DNA of 26,302 nt from Promethearchaeota archaeon (GTDB taxonomy: Archaea > Asgardarchaeota > Lokiarchaeia > Sigyniarchaeales > SOKP01). Below are positions 1 through 4,427 of this stretch, one piece after another; position 1 is the stretch's first letter, and each line of letters starts with the position of its first letter. The stretch covers positions 1-26,302 of the forward strand of contig JBHLOI010000042.1 in assembly GCA_048940645.1 (NCBI GenBank), read 5' to 3'. The notes under the pieces are model-generated. The model was not told the DNA's origin. It searched no databases and saw only the letters and a list, made by a program, of their open reading frames with translations. Position numbers and translations under genes: made by a program.

Positions 1-1691
1 CCAATATTAGAACCAAACTGATAATCAGCAATTTTAACTAATTTTCGAACCCATGATTTTGAATAATACTTCGATTTCGGTACATTTTCCTCAAAATTAA
101 AACTGTCTTTTAAATCCTTTACGAGGTTCTCTAGTGACTCCATTGAATCAGAAGTTGTAAGATTTTTGTAGACTTCTGTAAAGAAAAATTTGTTAGACAG
201 TTGTTTTTGTGCTCTTAAAACAATTTCCTTGTATCCTTTATCACTTACATGACATATAATCGGAATTTTTGTATTATACTTCTTAAGTAGTTCAACCAAC
301 ATTTGAGAAGCTAAATCAATCTCTTCATTATCCCAAAATCCAGTTACAGAGATATCATATGAATTTATAGGATAGATATTTTCTAGTTGTCTTGGTATAG
401 CTCCAAGAGGAGAAGTAAGAATAATTTCTTGAAAATCCGGGAAATCAGGAAATTTCCTTAAAACACTGTGAAATTTCTTATGAGATTTTGATGTTGAATA
501 TGGCTTTCTTGCAGAGCAAGGAAAAATTATAATTAATTTTGTCCACTGTTCAGGTGAAAAATTTTTTATTAACCTTTCTCTAAATTGATGAAAGTCTGGT
601 CTATAGTAAGAAGATGGACCAAAACATTTAACTGTTGAGTAAGAATCTGCTATTGGAGTCTCATACTTTATTAGATCAAAATATTGCCTATCTAATATTT
701 TTAAAATTGAAACGATTAGAACATCGTCAAATGATGTCTTTTCTACAAATGCTCGAAAATCTTCTGTCCTTAAATATTGTTTTATTTTATTCATATAGGT
801 TTTTGCTACTATTAGATTATGTAGACACAAATATTCATATATTTCATCTGAAGATTTCATGCTTTGGGAGTTCTTTAATTTAGTTTGACATGCGACACAT
901 GAACAAGGAAAATACTTTACTTTAGAAATTGGAAGTAAAAATTCTATTGTATCATAGAAATTCTCTGAAGTTAAATAGAGTAAATATGAACTATCAATAA
1001 GATCGATACCTAAGTAAATTAAAATTGGAAAATACTTAGGTATAACCCGTCCTGAAGCCATTAATACTAAATTATTATCAAAGTTTTGTTTAATAGTGAT
1101 AATTAAATCCAAAACATTTCTAAAATTAGTATTAGTAGTAAAAAAGTCAATTAAATTTAATAACTTAATATTTTTATTTTCTTTTATTAATGGACTATAT
1201 AGATCAAGGAATTGTGGATGTTCAAATATTTTAATACTTAACCCAAAATTAAGATTTGGAAATTGGGCTAAGAGTTGCTTTACTGATTTAAGATGATGTA
1301 AGATTTCATTTTTAGCAAAATTTTCATTAAGAATTGTGTTTGGGATATTGAAAGGGATTAGAAGAATAATATTATCCTCTGAAAAGATATCAACATTATT
1401 CTCTAGAATTTTTATAAATGTTTCTAGCGTACCTGTATGGGTGAAAATAAAAGTTGTATTTTTAAACTTATCGCGTAAAAAACCTATTTTTAAGAAAACT
1501 TCTTTTGATATTAAAAAAATTTCATGGTCTTCAAACTCTTCTAAGAAGTTAACGTCTTTCATTAGAAAATTTCGCATAGGGAGAATAACGTTAGGAGTCT
1601 TTACATATTTCTTAGGTTCCTTCGATAATTTGATTCTCCCGACCCTAGAATAACCTATACGTTTATTTAAGATTTCAAAAAAATAATTCAT
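1..1691 (-). CDS. arcS: Archaeosine synthase alpha subunit (ArcS/TgtA2-like), 3' end runs off the window
   Basis: Not in the ORF track (no stop in window). ATG at 1691 gives MNYFFEILNKRIGYSRVGRIKL...KTPNVILP (TGT-like start). The same frame near 521 encodes FPCSARKPYSTSKSHKKF and ILTSPLGAIPRQLENIYP..YDISVTGFW, motifs of the ArcS/DUF5591 region. Confidence 0.85.
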   Translation of the reverse strand, partial: MNYFFEILNKRIGYSRVGRIKLSKEPKKYVKTPNVILPMRNFLMKDVNFLEEFEDHEIFLISKEVFLKIGFLRDKFKNTTFIFTHTGTLETFIKILENNVDIFSEDNIILLIPFNIPNTILNENFAKNEILHHLKSVKQLLAQFPNLNFGLSIKIFEHPQFLDLYSPLIKENKNIKLLNLIDFFTTNTNFRNVLDLIITIKQNFDNNLVLMASGRVIPKYFPILIYLGIDLIDSSYLLYLTSENFYDTIEFLLPISKVKYFPCSCVACQTKLKNSQSMKSSDEIYEYLCLHNLIVAKTYMNKIKQYLRTEDFRAFVEKTSFDDVLIVSILKILDRQYFDLIKYETPIADSYSTVKCFGPSSYYRPDFHQFRERLIKNFSPEQWTKLIIIFPCSARKPYSTSKSHKKFHSVLRKFPDFPDFQEIILTSPLGAIPRQLENIYPINSYDISVTGFWDNEEIDLASQMLVELLKKYNTKIPIICHVSDKGYKEIVLRAQKQLSNKFFFTEVYKNLTTSDSMESLENLVKDLKDSFNFEENVPKSKYYSKSWVRKLVKIADYQFGSNI

Positions 1692-1788
1692 AATATACAA
1701 ATAAAAAAATGATTCTAAAGTAAATAAATTAATATTCTTTAAATTTTTTAAAAAATATCTGGAAAACTAATTTAAAATCATATGAATT

Positions 1789-3039
1789 TCAGAAAAGGAT
1801 AAAATTAGTATAAGGTTTCAACTCATCTAAAACAAAGCTCGTGAATGTATCTTCAATTTCTTCTGAGCTATATAAATCCTTGATAAAAAAGGCATAATCT
1901 TCAATCTTTTCCACTCTAACAATCGCAAATAATCCATATTGTTCGCCTATTCGAAATAAGTCAGTAATATTTTTGTGCATATCCAATCTAAGAGCAAGTT
2001 CATTATATTTTGATGGATCTTTTGGTTTAATACGAAGGAGATATTTGCCTTTAAAGCCTATTTTTTTTGGACAAAAATTTACCGTATAATTTAAGATAGC
2101 CCCTTGTTGTTCGAGCTTTTTAATTCTATTATGAATAGTTGATTGTGAAATATCGTCTTTGTTCAGAGACTTTAAAGTCATTCTATACTTCTCATTTAGC
2201 AGATCTTTGATTTCATATGTAGAAATTGGTCTTAATCCTTGGTCATCTTGTAATACTTTTAGAATAAGGTAATCTATCTCATCAATATAAAAATTTTGAC
2301 TAATCTTCTTCTCTAGTTGAATTCCTGTTTCTCTTATCTCTTGGGCAACTTTATCTATTATTTGCTCAACTCCTATTTCTTTTCTAAATTCAGTTATTAC
2401 TATTTTACCATTTGAGAAAATCAAAATTGTAGCATGCGGATCTTCTATCTTCATAATAAGGCCTGGAAATTTCAGTGGGTTATACTTGATATTCGCAGAA
2501 TTTTTAGCAATTTCTTTTAAATTGATGTTTTTTCCAAGATTAAATGAGATTTTTGAGTCTCTTAAGCTAATTCCATTTGTTTTAAACACCTTAATAGTTT
2601 CGATTATCTGATATTTCTTAAAATAAGATTTTGACATAATATTATCAATGTTATTCAATATCTGATAATATTCCTCGGGGGATCTAAAAATAAGTAATGC
2701 AAACAGAGAGAAATCTCCGAATATTCCATCTAACATTCTTAATTGGGGGATTTCTAAGAGTTCTTCGACTAATTCAGGTTCTTTAGGGTTAGTTTTTATT
2801 TCAATCATTACATATTTCAAATTATTTGGGCGAATATTTGGATTAATATTAATTGTAAAATTGGTAATTATTTTTTGATCCCTCAAATTATCAAGCTTGT
2901 TTTGATATGTTTGCCTAGAGAGTCCTATCGCACGTGAATTTTTTGATATAACAAATTTGGTTTTTCCTCTTAAATTCTTTATAAAGCTTTGGGCTTCCAT
3001 TCGATCTTTAATACTAATCATAATATTACAATTTTGCAT
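1789..3039 (-). CDS. Tandem Lrp/AsnC-family transcription regulator with an internal TBP-like repeat (Lrp-TBP-Lrp)
   Basis: aa ~15-155: wHTH (IGLSRQTYQNKLDNLRDQKIITNFTININP) plus AsnC/RAM domain (GIFGDFSL). aa ~157-241: TBP repeat (YNPLKFPGLIMKIEDPHATILIFSNGKIVIT). aa ~252-416: second Lrp unit (IDEIDYLILKVLQ...ISQSTIHNRIKKLEQQGAI...FRIGEQYGLFAIVRV). Confidence 0.85.
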   Translation of the reverse strand: MQNCNIMISIKDRMEAQSFIKNLRGKTKFVISKNSRAIGLSRQTYQNKLDNLRDQKIITNFTININPNIRPNNLKYVMIEIKTNPKEPELVEELLEIPQLRMLDGIFGDFSLFALLIFRSPEEYYQILNNIDNIMSKSYFKKYQIIETIKVFKTNGISLRDSKISFNLGKNINLKEIAKNSANIKYNPLKFPGLIMKIEDPHATILIFSNGKIVITEFRKEIGVEQIIDKVAQEIRETGIQLEKKISQNFYIDEIDYLILKVLQDDQGLRPISTYEIKDLLNEKYRMTLKSLNKDDISQSTIHNRIKKLEQQGAILNYTVNFCPKKIGFKGKYLLRIKPKDPSKYNELALRLDMHKNITDLFRIGEQYGLFAIVRVEKIEDYAFFIKDLYSSEEIEDTFTSFVLDELKPYTNFILF

Positions 3040-3158
3040 TTTCTTTGAATATTATTAATTAAATGTCAAATTAAATATATAAATACTTGCATTTAACCAA
3101 AAATATCTTTATTAGTTAATTAAAATTATTAAAAGTAAACTTTGAAAGTGAACATCAA

Positions 3159-4427
3159 ATGGTAAATTATAAAGTTGCTGATGAAACATTAACTGAAAAG
3201 GGAAAAGAAGCATTATATATTGCTGAAAGAAAAATGCCAGTAACAGCTAAAATCATTCGTGAAAGATTTTCAAAAGAAAAACCGTTGAAAGGTGTGGTCA
3301 TCGCAGGATGCCTACATATTACTAAAGAAACTGGAAATCTCGCACGCACACTTAAAGCAGGAGGGGCAGAGGTTTATTTATGTGGCAGCAATCCTCTATC
3401 AACCCAGGATGATGTAGCTGCAGCTTTAGTTGAAGAGGGAATAAATGTATTTGCTTGGCATGGAAATACAGATGAAGAGTTTTACTGGTGTATACGACAA
3501 TGTTTGAAAGCAAAACCAAATATTTTGATAGATGATGGAGCAGATATGATTGTAACAGCCCATGAAGAATTTCCTGAATTAATTGAAGATGGAACCATAA
3601 TTGCATGTCAGGAGGAAACTACAACGGGAGTAAAACGCTTTAGAGCTATGGAAAAAAAAGGTGTATTAAAAGTACCACTATTCCCAGTCAATGATGCGCG
3701 ATGCAAAAATCAATTTGATAATGAGCTAGGTACAGGACAAGGAGTTATTTCAGCAATATATGGAATGCATATATTATTTGCTGGAAAATTTTGTGTGATT
3801 GCTGGTTATGGGCACTGCTCATCAGGCATGGCACTAAGAGCTAGAGGACTAGGTGCTAATGTTATCGTCACTGAAATTGATCCAATAAAAGCACTCCAAG
3901 CCAAATTTGCTGGATATCAAGTTATGCCTATAGAAGATGCTCTACCAATAGCAGATATCATACTTACTGCTACAGGGTGTAAACATGTCATAGCTCCAAT
4001 TAAAGAAATGTTTGATAAACTTAAGGATGGTGTAATCCTTGGAAACCTTGGACACTTCGATATTGAAATTCCAACTAAACAATTATATGAATATGCAAAA
4101 GAAATAAAGCCAATACGAAAACATGTAGAAGAATTGACTCTACCAAGTGGTAAAAAGATCTATCTACTTGCTAAGGGTAGATTAGCTAATTTAGTACTTT
4201 CTGAAGGTCATCCAAGTGAAATTATGGATATGTCATTTAGTTTACAGTCTCTGATGTCTGAATATATCGTAAAAAATAAGGATTTTTTAAAAGCTGGAAT
4301 GGTAAATGTGCCCGTTGATATAGATAACAAAGTGGGACTACTTAAATTAAGCTCAATGGGTGTAAAGATTGATTCCTTAACAGAAGAACAATATAATTAT
4401 ATCCATGGATATGAAGAGGGTACTTAA
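3159..4427 (+). CDS. ahcY: S-adenosylhomocysteine hydrolase (adenosylhomocysteinase)
   Basis: Motifs GCLHITKET, GSNPLSTQDDVAAAL, DDGAD, EETTTG, GHFDIEI, GRLANL, GHPSEIMDMSF; archaeal-type C-terminus YEEGT; SD-like AAGTGA upstream. Confidence 0.95.
   Translation: MVNYKVADETLTEKGKEALYIAERKMPVTAKIIRERFSKEKPLKGVVIAGCLHITKETGNLARTLKAGGAEVYLCGSNPLSTQDDVAAALVEEGINVFAWHGNTDEEFYWCIRQCLKAKPNILIDDGADMIVTAHEEFPELIEDGTIIACQEETTTGVKRFRAMEKKGVLKVPLFPVNDARCKNQFDNELGTGQGVISAIYGMHILFAGKFCVIAGYGHCSSGMALRARGLGANVIVTEIDPIKALQAKFAGYQVMPIEDALPIADIILTATGCKHVIAPIKEMFDKLKDGVILGNLGHFDIEIPTKQLYEYAKEIKPIRKHVEELTLPSGKKIYLLAKGRLANLVLSEGHPSEIMDMSFSLQSLMSEYIVKNKDFLKAGMVNVPVDIDNKVGLLKLSSMGVKIDSLTEEQYNYIHGYEEGT

Follow-up and report, generated by a model that had tools for sequence, protein, structure and literature searches.

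Results

A tandem Lrp protein with an internal TBP repeat lies divergent to ahcY

We analyzed a 26,302-nucleotide stretch of Promethearchaeota archaeon DNA (contig JBHLOI010000042.1, assembly GCA_048940645.1), hereafter the window. The following genes and domains lie in its first part.

3 to 1700, minus strand: ArcS-like TGT and DUF5591 protein of the archaeosine pathway (PF17884, E 1e-45; PF01702, E 1e-11; synteny), cut by the window end
1789 to 3039, minus strand: Lrp–TBP–Lrp coding sequence, 416 aa from the first ATG (410 aa from the probable start, Met-7)
1792 to 2298, minus strand: C-terminal Lrp/AsnC unit, aa 248–416, winged HTH (HTH_24/HTH_AsnC-type) and RAM domain (FL11, PF01037, NCBIfam Lrp)
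2299 to 2571, minus strand: single TBP repeat, aa 157–247 (PF00352, 1pcz, AF2 and Foldseek)
2572 to 2988, minus strand: N-terminal Lrp/AsnC unit, aa 18–156, divergent winged HTH and RAM domain (FL11/PH1519 alignment, PF01037)
3159 to 4427, plus strand: ahcY, S-adenosyl-L-homocysteine hydrolase (PF05221, E 6e-61; PF00670, E 2e-44; synteny)

The frame at window positions 1789 to 3039 on the minus strand runs uninterrupted for 416 aa, and the version in databases is the 410-aa form. The true start is probably Met-7 (nucleotide 3021), since codons 1–6 lie over a conserved noncoding motif in which most orthologues have no ATG. Pfam matches to AsnC_trans_reg and HTH_24 were found on both sides of the TBP repeat, and each unit had the winged HTH followed by a RAM domain that defines Lrp/AsnC proteins. 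The N unit (aa 18–134) aligned with residues 11–127 of FL11/PH1519, spanning HTH and RAM (E 1.4e-5), and was 80–88% identical among orthologues. The C unit matched HTH_24 (27 bits), PF01037 (29.7 bits), FL11 (E 1e-10), and NCBIfam Lrp (E 3e-18). An earlier note on this DNA had described two complete Lrp units; this held for the C unit, and the N unit was also complete but divergent, its RAM match (PF01037, aa 79–134) reaching 23.5 bits, just below the Pfam cut-off of 25. Both HTHs were conserved among orthologues. Ordinary Lrp/AsnC proteins consist of one ~150-aa unit that dimerises and oligomerises, whereas here two units are joined in one chain. The full-length AF2 model was poor (pLDDT 63, pTM 0.37), with an unusable inter-domain geometry, including where the lobe lies with respect to the HTHs; a Foldseek search with it recovered separate TBP and Lrp folds as well as NirDL (4ch7), and an ESM Atlas search returned only generic Lrp or tandem-Lrp clusters (scores ≤0.78).

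The insert has the fold and most DNA-facing residues of one TBP lobe

PF00352 matched aa 165–237 of the fusion (E 3.3e-20; 72.2 bits, with the cut-off at 22.9; profile positions 10–84 of 85). The lobe aligned to either repeat of Pyrococcus woesei TBP (1pcz, E 5e-25) and was 47% identical to repeat 1 of the canonical TBP of the same genome. An AF2 model of the lobe alone (pLDDT 82, pTM 0.75) displayed the complete S1-H1-S2-S3-S4-S5-H2 order (S1, aa 163–167; H1, 174–178; S2, 184–186; S3, 193–199; S4, 202–208; S5, 212–216; H2, 224–237). The first 44 Foldseek matches of this model were all TBPs (TMq 0.68–0.79, rmsd 1.8–2.2 Å), the best superposition on one TBP lobe giving a TM of 0.79 at 1.9 Å. 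The earlier note had placed a TBP repeat at aa 157–241 (nucleotides 2571–2317); these coordinates were correct, and the lobe matched TBP by both profile and fold.

Phe-191 and Phe-208 occupy the two intercalating-Phe positions, aligned with yeast F99/F116. Among the 33 lobe-bearing species loci, F191 was present in all and F208 in 30, and the three basic DNA-contact positions carried K/R in 29–32 species. Strand 1 of the window's lobe reads S-K-I-S-F, without the TBP Asn, and the T-G that follows strand 5 of TBP reads T216-E217; the earlier note had called both changes, and the retained Phe pair, correctly. Of the 33 species, 30 had T, S, or N in the T216 column and 25 had G in the G217 column. 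Most long-form orthologues retained the E-N of S1 in an “EN-I-x-I” strand 1; in the window's sub-clade, linker sequence substitutes for the native S1. Many orthologues also carried an extra acidic, helix-like segment (FEEELL...) directly before the lobe, and variable extra loops occurred within it. In a prediction with two lobe copies (aa 157–247, family alignment), the dimer scored ipSAE values of 0.04 and 0.02, which weigh neither for nor against pairing.

In TBP, the repeat-2 stirrup Y-E-P-E-V docks TFB/TFIIB, as known from mutagenesis. Repeat 2 of the genome's own TBP reads Y-E-P-E-V-F-P-G at this site, whereas the stirrup of the lobe, Y-N-P-x-[KR]-F-P-G, is of the repeat-1 type and has no docking signature (E-P-E-[LV] before F-P-G). 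The fusion contains only one repeat instead of the two tandem repeats of a TBP, and the same genome encodes a normal two-repeat TBP elsewhere. Because the lobe stirrup is of the repeat-1 type and lacks the repeat-2 signature, recruitment of TFB by a built-in TBP is improbable as judged from the sequence, contrary to the activator envisaged in the earlier note.

The insert is a TBP repeat-1 derivative, optional within one family

Both fusion junctions were bridged by contigs from three studies. Misassembly or chimerism, which the earlier note had considered, is excluded by these contigs together with the same architecture at 33 species-level loci and in ~37 genomes. In the GTDB family of the window, ~37 of 125 genomes, from five genera, carried Lrp–TBP–Lrp, in a single copy each. 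The remaining family genomes had the same gene without the insert at the same locus, the insert being missing from ~70% of orthologues, and the alleles with and without the lobe shared this locus sometimes inside one genus. Since synteny was identical and each genome had one copy, the two forms are orthologous. The insert-bearing genes fell within one clade of the gene tree and were patchy on the neighbor-gene tree; some nested lineages had lost the insert again by secondary deletions that left a linker scar. The NCBI labels of these MAGs (Thor-, Hermod-, Hod-, and Odinarchaeota) were not used for taxonomy because near-identical TBP and neighbor genes conflict with them. Profile, lobe fold model, and recurrence in dozens of species confirm that the protein has one TBP repeat between two Lrp/AsnC units, as the earlier note had proposed, and that this architecture is real and conserved.

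All 33 inserts scored higher against TBP repeat 1 (37–63% identity) than against repeat 2 (27–41%), and the split placing inserts and repeat 1 apart from repeat 2 received a support of 100, indicating that the insert is derived from repeat 1. Among the matches listed for 400 Asgard genomes, odd PF00352 match counts were concentrated in the family and order of the window. When the lobe was used as a query against protein representatives, the best 150 of 2796 matches all had at least two TBP repeats, because two matching stretches outscore one; this ranking does not bear on other single-lobe architectures.

The lobe is under relaxed but purifying selection

In 11 of 11 close pairs, the dN/dS of the lobe was below 1 (range 0.26–0.84). 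The lobe evolved ~3 times faster than the Lrp units (median dN/dS ~0.35 versus ~0.1), and the canonical TBP was 85–99% identical across the same genomes. The twelve DNA-facing positions of S3–S5 were conserved like the core (1.03 versus 1.06 bits) and above the rest of the lobe (1.67 bits); they were 67% identical to canonical repeat 1, compared with 46% elsewhere in the lobe. Helix H2, on the convex surface, was the least conserved part. No frame-disrupted or half-deleted inserts were found among the 33 species loci. These patterns show that selection on the lobe is relaxed yet still purifying, with a conserved DNA face. The decay of the insert that the earlier note had allowed for was borne out in that the lobe is optional, sometimes deleted, and under relaxed selection, but not in that purifying selection and the DNA face, including the Phe pair, persist. 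A conserved concave face of this kind would be explained just as well by packing within the molecule or by binding of another protein.

The regulator and ahcY share a conserved control region

The divergent adjacency of ahcY was found at every orthologous locus with a flank; ahcY was divergent to the regulator gene in 125 of 135 family genomes (36 of 36 high-quality ones), and the pairing also held for 34–36% identical relatives in the sister family. The arcS-like gene is the downstream same-strand neighbor of the regulator gene and, like the upstream ahcY, is common to forms with and without the insert; the downstream row reads arcS-like, radical-SAM, gar1, tfb. The region between regulator and ahcY contains the following elements.

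3022 to 3158, no strand: divergent control region of the regulator and ahcY (conserved blocks, 43 loci)
3026 to 3040: fourth block, TGCAAAATTGTAAT, conserved only at the ~75% level; probable imperfect palindrome
3052 to 3066: conserved block
3076 to 3103: conserved block, GGTTAAATGCAAATATT then TTTATATAT
3076 to 3083: segment TTTATATA
3108 to 3128: conserved block, A/T palindrome

At most positions, the blocks 3108–3128, 3076–3103, and 3052–3066 were at least 90% conserved across the 43 loci. Where Lrp proteins control their own gene and a target, a divergent gene and an A/T-rich palindromic region are typical. We infer that the blocks are candidate back-to-back TATA boxes and a candidate Lrp operator; in archaea, Lrp sites usually lie directly next to BRE/TATA (PMC2995911). 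The nested lobe-less loci had all of the conserved blocks, and a comparison of control regions between loci with and without the lobe revealed no lobe-specific cis element.

Discussion

The fusion combines features of several known systems. Its lobe is homologous to a single lobe of archaeal TBP (P. woesei 1PCZ/1AIS, Sulfolobus acidocaldarius 1MP9, and the genome's own TBP), with which it shares both Phe residues and most S3–S5 contacts; unlike archaeal TBP, it is single, embedded in another protein, far faster evolving, and dispensable, and the window's version differs further in strand 1 (no Asn), at G217 (Glu), and at the TFB-docking site (no E-P-E-[LV]). Both Lrp units share the wHTH and RAM domains of Lrp/AsnC regulators (FL11/PH1519, 2CYY and 2E1C; Pyrococcus furiosus LrpA, 1I1G; Methanocaldococcus jannaschii Ptr2; LysM), and the gene, like those of such regulators, lies divergent to a metabolic gene across a conserved A/T-rich palindromic control region. 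The fusion differs from them in having two units in one chain, a divergent N unit, and a foreign domain in the inter-unit linker. Whereas Ptr2 recruits free TBP in trans, the fusion carries half a TBP in cis.

Single TBP-type repeats likewise occur in the monopartite TBP-domain proteins of Euryarchaeota and in halobacterial TbpA (Brindefalk et al. 2013, PMC3597702), and their existence outside two-repeat TBP argues that one lobe can function alone. Those proteins are stand-alone and at most 150 aa long, whereas the lobe described here is internal to a 410- to 416-aa protein and is a recent repeat-1 derivative inserted in a regulator; PMC3597702 gives no Lrp/AsnC context, with zero occurrences of Lrp or AsnC. 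The N-terminal TBP-like domain of RNase HIII provides a precedent for a single TBP-like lobe that binds a duplex (PMC4132731, PMC3597702), and we use this TBP-fold lobe, fused as a duplex nucleic-acid handle, as a working analogy. It differs from the present lobe in being bacterial, nuclease-fused, and very distant in sequence, with no recent common origin, and in binding RNA/DNA hybrids.

NirDL and AhbA–AhbB (4CH7) also have tandem Lrp-like units in one chain, and we asked whether the protein could be such an enzyme, a siroheme decarboxylase, and not a regulator. NirDL is a two-unit fusion like the present protein, 4ch7 was among the fold matches, weak NCBIfam matches to AhbA and AhbB were obtained (E 0.002–0.003), and a radical-SAM gene lies nearby. 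This identity is nevertheless very improbable, and we rejected it on the NCBIfam scores: AhbA and AhbB reached 17.5–17.8 bits against cut-offs of 125–140, a marginal similarity of ~18 bits to enzymes with neither regulatory role nor TBP insert, whereas the Lrp and LysM regulator families scored E 1e-16 to 1e-18. Both HTHs are conserved, and the radical-SAM gene follows the TGT/DUF5591 gene, an order that would fit the archaeosine pathway rather than haem.

Starting from the observed architecture, fold, repeat-1 origin, distribution, synteny, selection pattern, and conserved control region, we tentatively favor an Lrp protein that regulates the ahcY promoter region and has gained an accessory lobe contact, minor-groove binding or TATA-occluding, an explanation to which, taken whole, we give slightly less than an even chance. 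A single-chain, pseudo-dimeric regulator of two fused HTH–RAM units, the conserved divergent partner of ahcY, most likely binds the control region at 3022–3158 and would adjust the expression of ahcY and of its own gene to a small ligand, both the ahcY regulon and the ligand being putative. In one allele lineage, within one family of Lokiarchaeia type, the ~12-residue RAM1–HTH2 linker received a copy of the first repeat of the TBP encoded by the same cell. The inserted lobe, which retains the TBP fold and DNA-facing residues, would most likely provide an accessory, non-specific minor-groove contact on A/T-rich DNA, bending the DNA or covering an adjacent TATA box; it would not act as a TFB-recruiting TBP, and it would modulate the regulator while being dispensable to it. 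For the lobe, a role as an added contact with DNA is likelier than one as a private TATA-binding protein. Against an accessory contact stand the lost strand-1 Asn in the window's sub-clade, Glu at position 217, and a position 216 held only to T/S/N; the ~3-fold faster evolution of the lobe beside a canonical TBP that is 85–99% identical; and the deletion of the insert in nested lineages with the same motifs in the control region.

The earlier note had suggested that oligomerisation could assemble a TBP-like saddle. Lobes of neighboring Lrp protomers would then pair via S1 into a homodimeric TATA clamp, acting as a ligand-controlled occluder or a private TBP. The conserved Phe positions and DNA face, the oligomerisation of Lrp proteins (PMC2995911), two divergent TATA-like boxes in the conserved control region, and the canonical “EN-I-x-I” strand 1 of most long-form orthologues would suit such a structure. 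We nonetheless consider it unlikely, and the saddle was not supported: the insert is a descendant of repeat 1, all lobes lack the TFB-docking repeat-2 stirrup, making a private TBP unlikely, the native S1 has been swapped for linker sequence in the window's sub-clade, and an obligate symmetric interface would not be expected to be optional and under relaxed selection. That a saddle from the lobes of two protomers clamps one of the back-to-back TATA boxes of the ahcY/regulator region is, in particular, quite doubtful. If it were true, the hypothetical homodimeric ancestor of TBP would have a living example, and at one promoter a gene-specific factor would compete with the general factor or take its place.

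The lobe might instead work off DNA, as a half-TBP mimic that binds a partner of TBP repeat 1, either the regulator's own RAM activation surface, for which it would be an autoinhibitory pseudo-target, or a separate TBP-binding factor. Ptr2-type Lrp activators do work through direct RAM–TBP contacts (PMC2995911), the concave face is conserved though not strictly TBP-like, and the acidic FEEELL... segment could cover that face. However, the conserved residues are exactly the DNA-contact set, including K/R at three positions, and H2, on the convex surface that usually docks proteins, is the least conserved element; a role of this kind seems to us rather improbable. A functionless lobe, tolerated in a permissive linker and drifting until deleted, would explain its absence from ~70% of orthologues, the scar-leaving deletions, a dN/dS as high as 0.84 in one pair, identical control-region motifs with and without the lobe, and its variable loops. 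The dN/dS values below 1 in 11 of 11 pairs (median ~0.35), the fold residues and solvent-exposed hydrophobic DNA face conserved over 33 species, the lack of frame-disrupted or half-deleted inserts at those loci, and the spread of the allele across five genera argue against a mere passenger, which we regard as a minor possibility.

The general factor TBP is regarded as universal and as an indivisible unit of two lobes. In the present case, one lobe was copied recently from the cell's own TBP and built into a gene-specific, putatively ligand-sensing regulator, and this in the archaea most closely related to eukaryotes. The Lrp–TBP–Lrp fusion is apparently undescribed so far: as the earlier note had supposed, no description of the architecture was found in the searchable literature, whose coverage leaves out most subscription journals, and within the same coverage no archaeal Lrp protein was reported to regulate ahcY. 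Because natural alleles that have the lobe and others that lack it share one locus, they offer a ready comparison of what a single TBP lobe does on DNA. They bear on whether a homodimeric TBP can work, and with it on how TBP arose through duplication, as well as on how parts of the basal machinery are recruited into specific regulation. In addition, the strict conservation of a tandem Lrp gene beside ahcY points to an uncharacterised methyl-cycle regulator in Asgard archaea.

An Lrp/AsnC regulator carries a single TBP repeat

Regulator open reading frame
1789-3039, minus strand: Lrp-TBP-Lrp open frame of 416 codons

A Pfam search of the product of this frame detected one TBP repeat (the lobe; PF00352, aa 165-237, E 3.3e-20; score 72 bits, curated cut-off 22.9 bits), flanked on either side by Lrp/AsnC RAM and HTH matches; NCBIfam was concordant. 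Against solved structures, aa 164-244 aligned with either repeat of the P. woesei TBP 1pcz (E 5e-25), and residues 279-411, the C-terminal unit, aligned with FL11/PH1519. The N-terminal unit was complete and more divergent (aa 18-134 against FL11 residues 11-127, E 1.4e-5), sharing 28% identity with the C-terminal unit. An AlphaFold model of the lobe alone, built from a 26-row alignment, had a pLDDT of 82, a pTM of 0.75 and the full S1-H1-S2-S3-S4-S5-H2 order of strands and helices. When this model was compared with the PDB using Foldseek, the first 44 matches were all TBPs (TMq 0.68-0.79, rmsd ~1.9 Å over 78-84 residues); the model of the full-length protein was of too low quality for positioning the lobe. 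The lobe coordinates and residue calls of the earlier note, which had proposed an Lrp-TBP-Lrp fusion, are correct. Since an ordinary two-repeat TBP is encoded on another contig of the same genome, the fusion is not a substitute for TBP. Databases name the protein only "Lrp/AsnC ligand binding domain-containing protein" or "hypothetical protein".

Misassembly or a chimera was excluded, as Logan contigs from three separate studies span both domain junctions: an exact 484-nt contig covers 2226-2709, and contigs of the other studies, ~95% identical, cover 1698-2593 and 2489-2736. More than 600 homologues were found, with the same three-part Pfam architecture in about 90 of the best 120. The GTDB species representatives yielded 79 loci, 77 of them usable at full length; 33 of these 77 carried the insert. 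Of the 135 genomes in the window's GTDB family, 125 had the regulator gene, with or without the lobe, including all 36 of high quality; it was always in single copy and never in both forms in one genome. Individual GTDB genera contained both forms (window's own genus, ~10 of 36 genomes; a second genus, ~24 of 52). Closed sister-family genomes had only 34-36% identical tandem-Lrp relatives, lacking TBP and likewise divergent from the SAH hydrolase gene ahcY.

Three of these closed genomes (G135, G138 and G143) have 8-10 PF00352 matches each, that is, several TBP paralogues, and the odd number of PF00352 matches in many genomes hints that more single-lobe TBP genes exist in different settings. 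NCBI labels of Odin-, Hod-, Hermod- and Thorarchaeota (loci L085, L088, L051 and others) are attached to MAGs of one GTDB family whose TBPs are 92-99% identical to that of the window; these labels look unreliable for taxonomy.

Gene neighborhood and control region

The ahcY gene (79-88% identical among loci) was always divergent from the regulator gene at a distance of ~110-160 bp, and a TGT+DUF5591 (ArcS-like) gene, then radical-SAM, gar1 and tfb genes, lay downstream. Because this order was the same for regulators with and without the lobe, the two forms are positional orthologues. The loci of two homologues (L004, P0040; L005, P0121) and the left side of the window share the row arsA-like, ahcY, tandem Lrp, TGT/DUF5591, radical SAM, gar1 and tfb. 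Its radical SAM gene is possibly the RaSEA partner of ArcS; the position of a TFB gene four genes downstream of a regulator bearing a TBP lobe may be coincidence.

Conservation of the ahcY/regulator intergenic region (3022-3158) was unusually high: three blocks were at least 90% identical at most positions across 43 species loci.

Conserved blocks of the intergenic region
3108-3128: A/T palindrome, most positions at least 90% across 43 loci
3076-3103: GGTTAAATGCAAATATT then TTTATATAT, most positions at least 90% across 43 loci
3052-3066: ACATTTAATTAATAA, most positions at least 90% across 43 loci
3026-3040: fourth block, TGCAAAATTGTAAT, ~75% conserved, no position at 90%

The region contains two A/T palindromes, the TTTATATAT box and two imperfect palindromes with TGCAAA that resemble Lrp boxes. 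We infer that the blocks represent two back-to-back archaeal promoters, with a candidate Lrp operator between and over them. This reading fits archaeal Lrp behavior, in which sites abut BRE/TATA, repression occurs by blocking RNAP and activation by TBP contact (PMC2995911). Given the divergent adjacency, the conserved blocks and these habits, in this lineage the protein most likely serves as the regulator of ahcY (methyl cycle).

Since the first six codons (MQNCNI; 3021-3039) overlap the conserved non-coding motif TGCAAAATTGTAAT and most orthologues lack an ATG there, the true start is probably Met7 (nt 3021); databases carry this 410-aa form (P0002). The "TAA inside" reported for some genome matches has the same cause.

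Origin, gain and loss of the lobe

Compared with the TBP of its own genome, the window lobe shared 47% identity with repeat 1 and 35% with repeat 2; in all 33 species, repeat 1 gave the higher score for the lobe (37-63% identity, versus 27-41% for repeat 2). When 33 lobes and 53 distinct sequences of each repeat were placed in one tree, lobes and repeat 1 were split from repeat 2 with a support of 100; the lobes formed one group with a support of only 50.

A tree of the Lrp columns placed every lobe-bearing gene, 33 in all, in one clade (support 96) together with 10 genes that lack the lobe; all 34 genes outside this clade lacked it. The linker reads NGIELDD-NKIDPNFEID in the outer lobe-less forms and NGISLRKSK, lobe, GIKLDKKNIDPNFEID in the lobe-bearing forms. 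Because most nested lobe-less forms (L040-42, L048, L050, L051, L056, L057) keep the scar NGISLKKSExS, they are identified as secondary deletions. This tree needs a minimum of four changes of lobe state, only one forced by starred branches, whereas that of the downstream ArcS-like gene needs 11, at least eight forced by supported branches. This strong conflict (L006-L084) suggests that, among Asgard species within a single family, recombination has replaced alleles at this conserved locus. With 11 changes in the neighbor tree and both forms inside the same genera, the lobe-bearing allele has undergone either such exchange or many losses.

In most lobe-bearing orthologues the canonical E-N-I-x-I strand 1 is preceded by an additional acidic segment of ~25 aa; in the long forms (L009, L011-L036) this segment is helix-like (FEEELL..K.KK..E) and lies between RAM1 and the native strand. 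The window's sub-clade lacks both, and linker residues SKISF serve as strand 1. The segment could lie on the lobe's concave face in a DNA-mimic-like manner.

Selection on the lobe and its possible role

The top-residue frequency was 0.60 in the lobe versus 0.85-0.90 in the Lrp units, and dN/dS in 11 close pairs was 0.26-0.84 (median ~0.35) versus 0.06-0.27; for canonical TBP, identity among these genomes was 85-99%. Truncation or a broken frame was seen in none of the lobes at the 33 species loci. Judged from these sequences, the lobe is evolving faster than its host, yet under purifying selection. Entropy was 1.03 bits at the twelve DNA-facing positions of S3-S5, 1.06 in the buried core and 1.67 elsewhere, and the twelve positions were 67% identical to canonical repeat 1 versus 46% in the rest of the lobe. 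Of the residues matching the DNA-intercalating Phe of TBP, F191 was invariant and F208 was kept in 30 of 33 species; the R98/R105/K120-equivalent positions were K/R in 32, 29 and 32. Since exposed hydrophobic residues would not be preserved for folding alone, this half-saddle face, to judge by its conservation, must bind something. In eukaryotic TBP, mutagenesis has shown that the repeat-2 E-P-E-V stirrup docks TFIIB. The lobe's stirrup is of the repeat-1 type (N-P-x-[KR]) and lacks E-P-E-V, so that recruitment of TFB by the lobe is unlikely.

We tentatively favor, at a little short of even chances, an accessory minor-groove contact of the lobe with A/T-rich DNA, which would contribute DNA bending or mask a neighboring TATA box. 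RNase HIII offers an analogy, its single TBP-like lobe serving as a duplex handle (PMC4132731, PMC3597702). That lobes of two protomers rebuild a saddle, as the earlier note had envisaged through oligomerization, seems improbable. Archaeal Lrp activators contact TBP via their RAM domains, which suggests a TBP-mimicking protein-contact or autoinhibitory module; we nevertheless consider such a module unlikely, and give an equally low chance to the lobe being a tolerated passenger. An enzyme like NirDL is very improbable, with NCBIfam scores far under the cut-offs.

No description of an Lrp-TBP fusion was found in the searchable literature, and neither Lrp nor AsnC appears in a survey of the TBP-domain superfamily (PMC3597702). 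What is new in the fusion is its pairing of two well-known domains. Its importance is tempered by its occurrence in one family-level lineage only, where the lobe is optional, and raised by its being a natural experiment on the capabilities of half a TBP.
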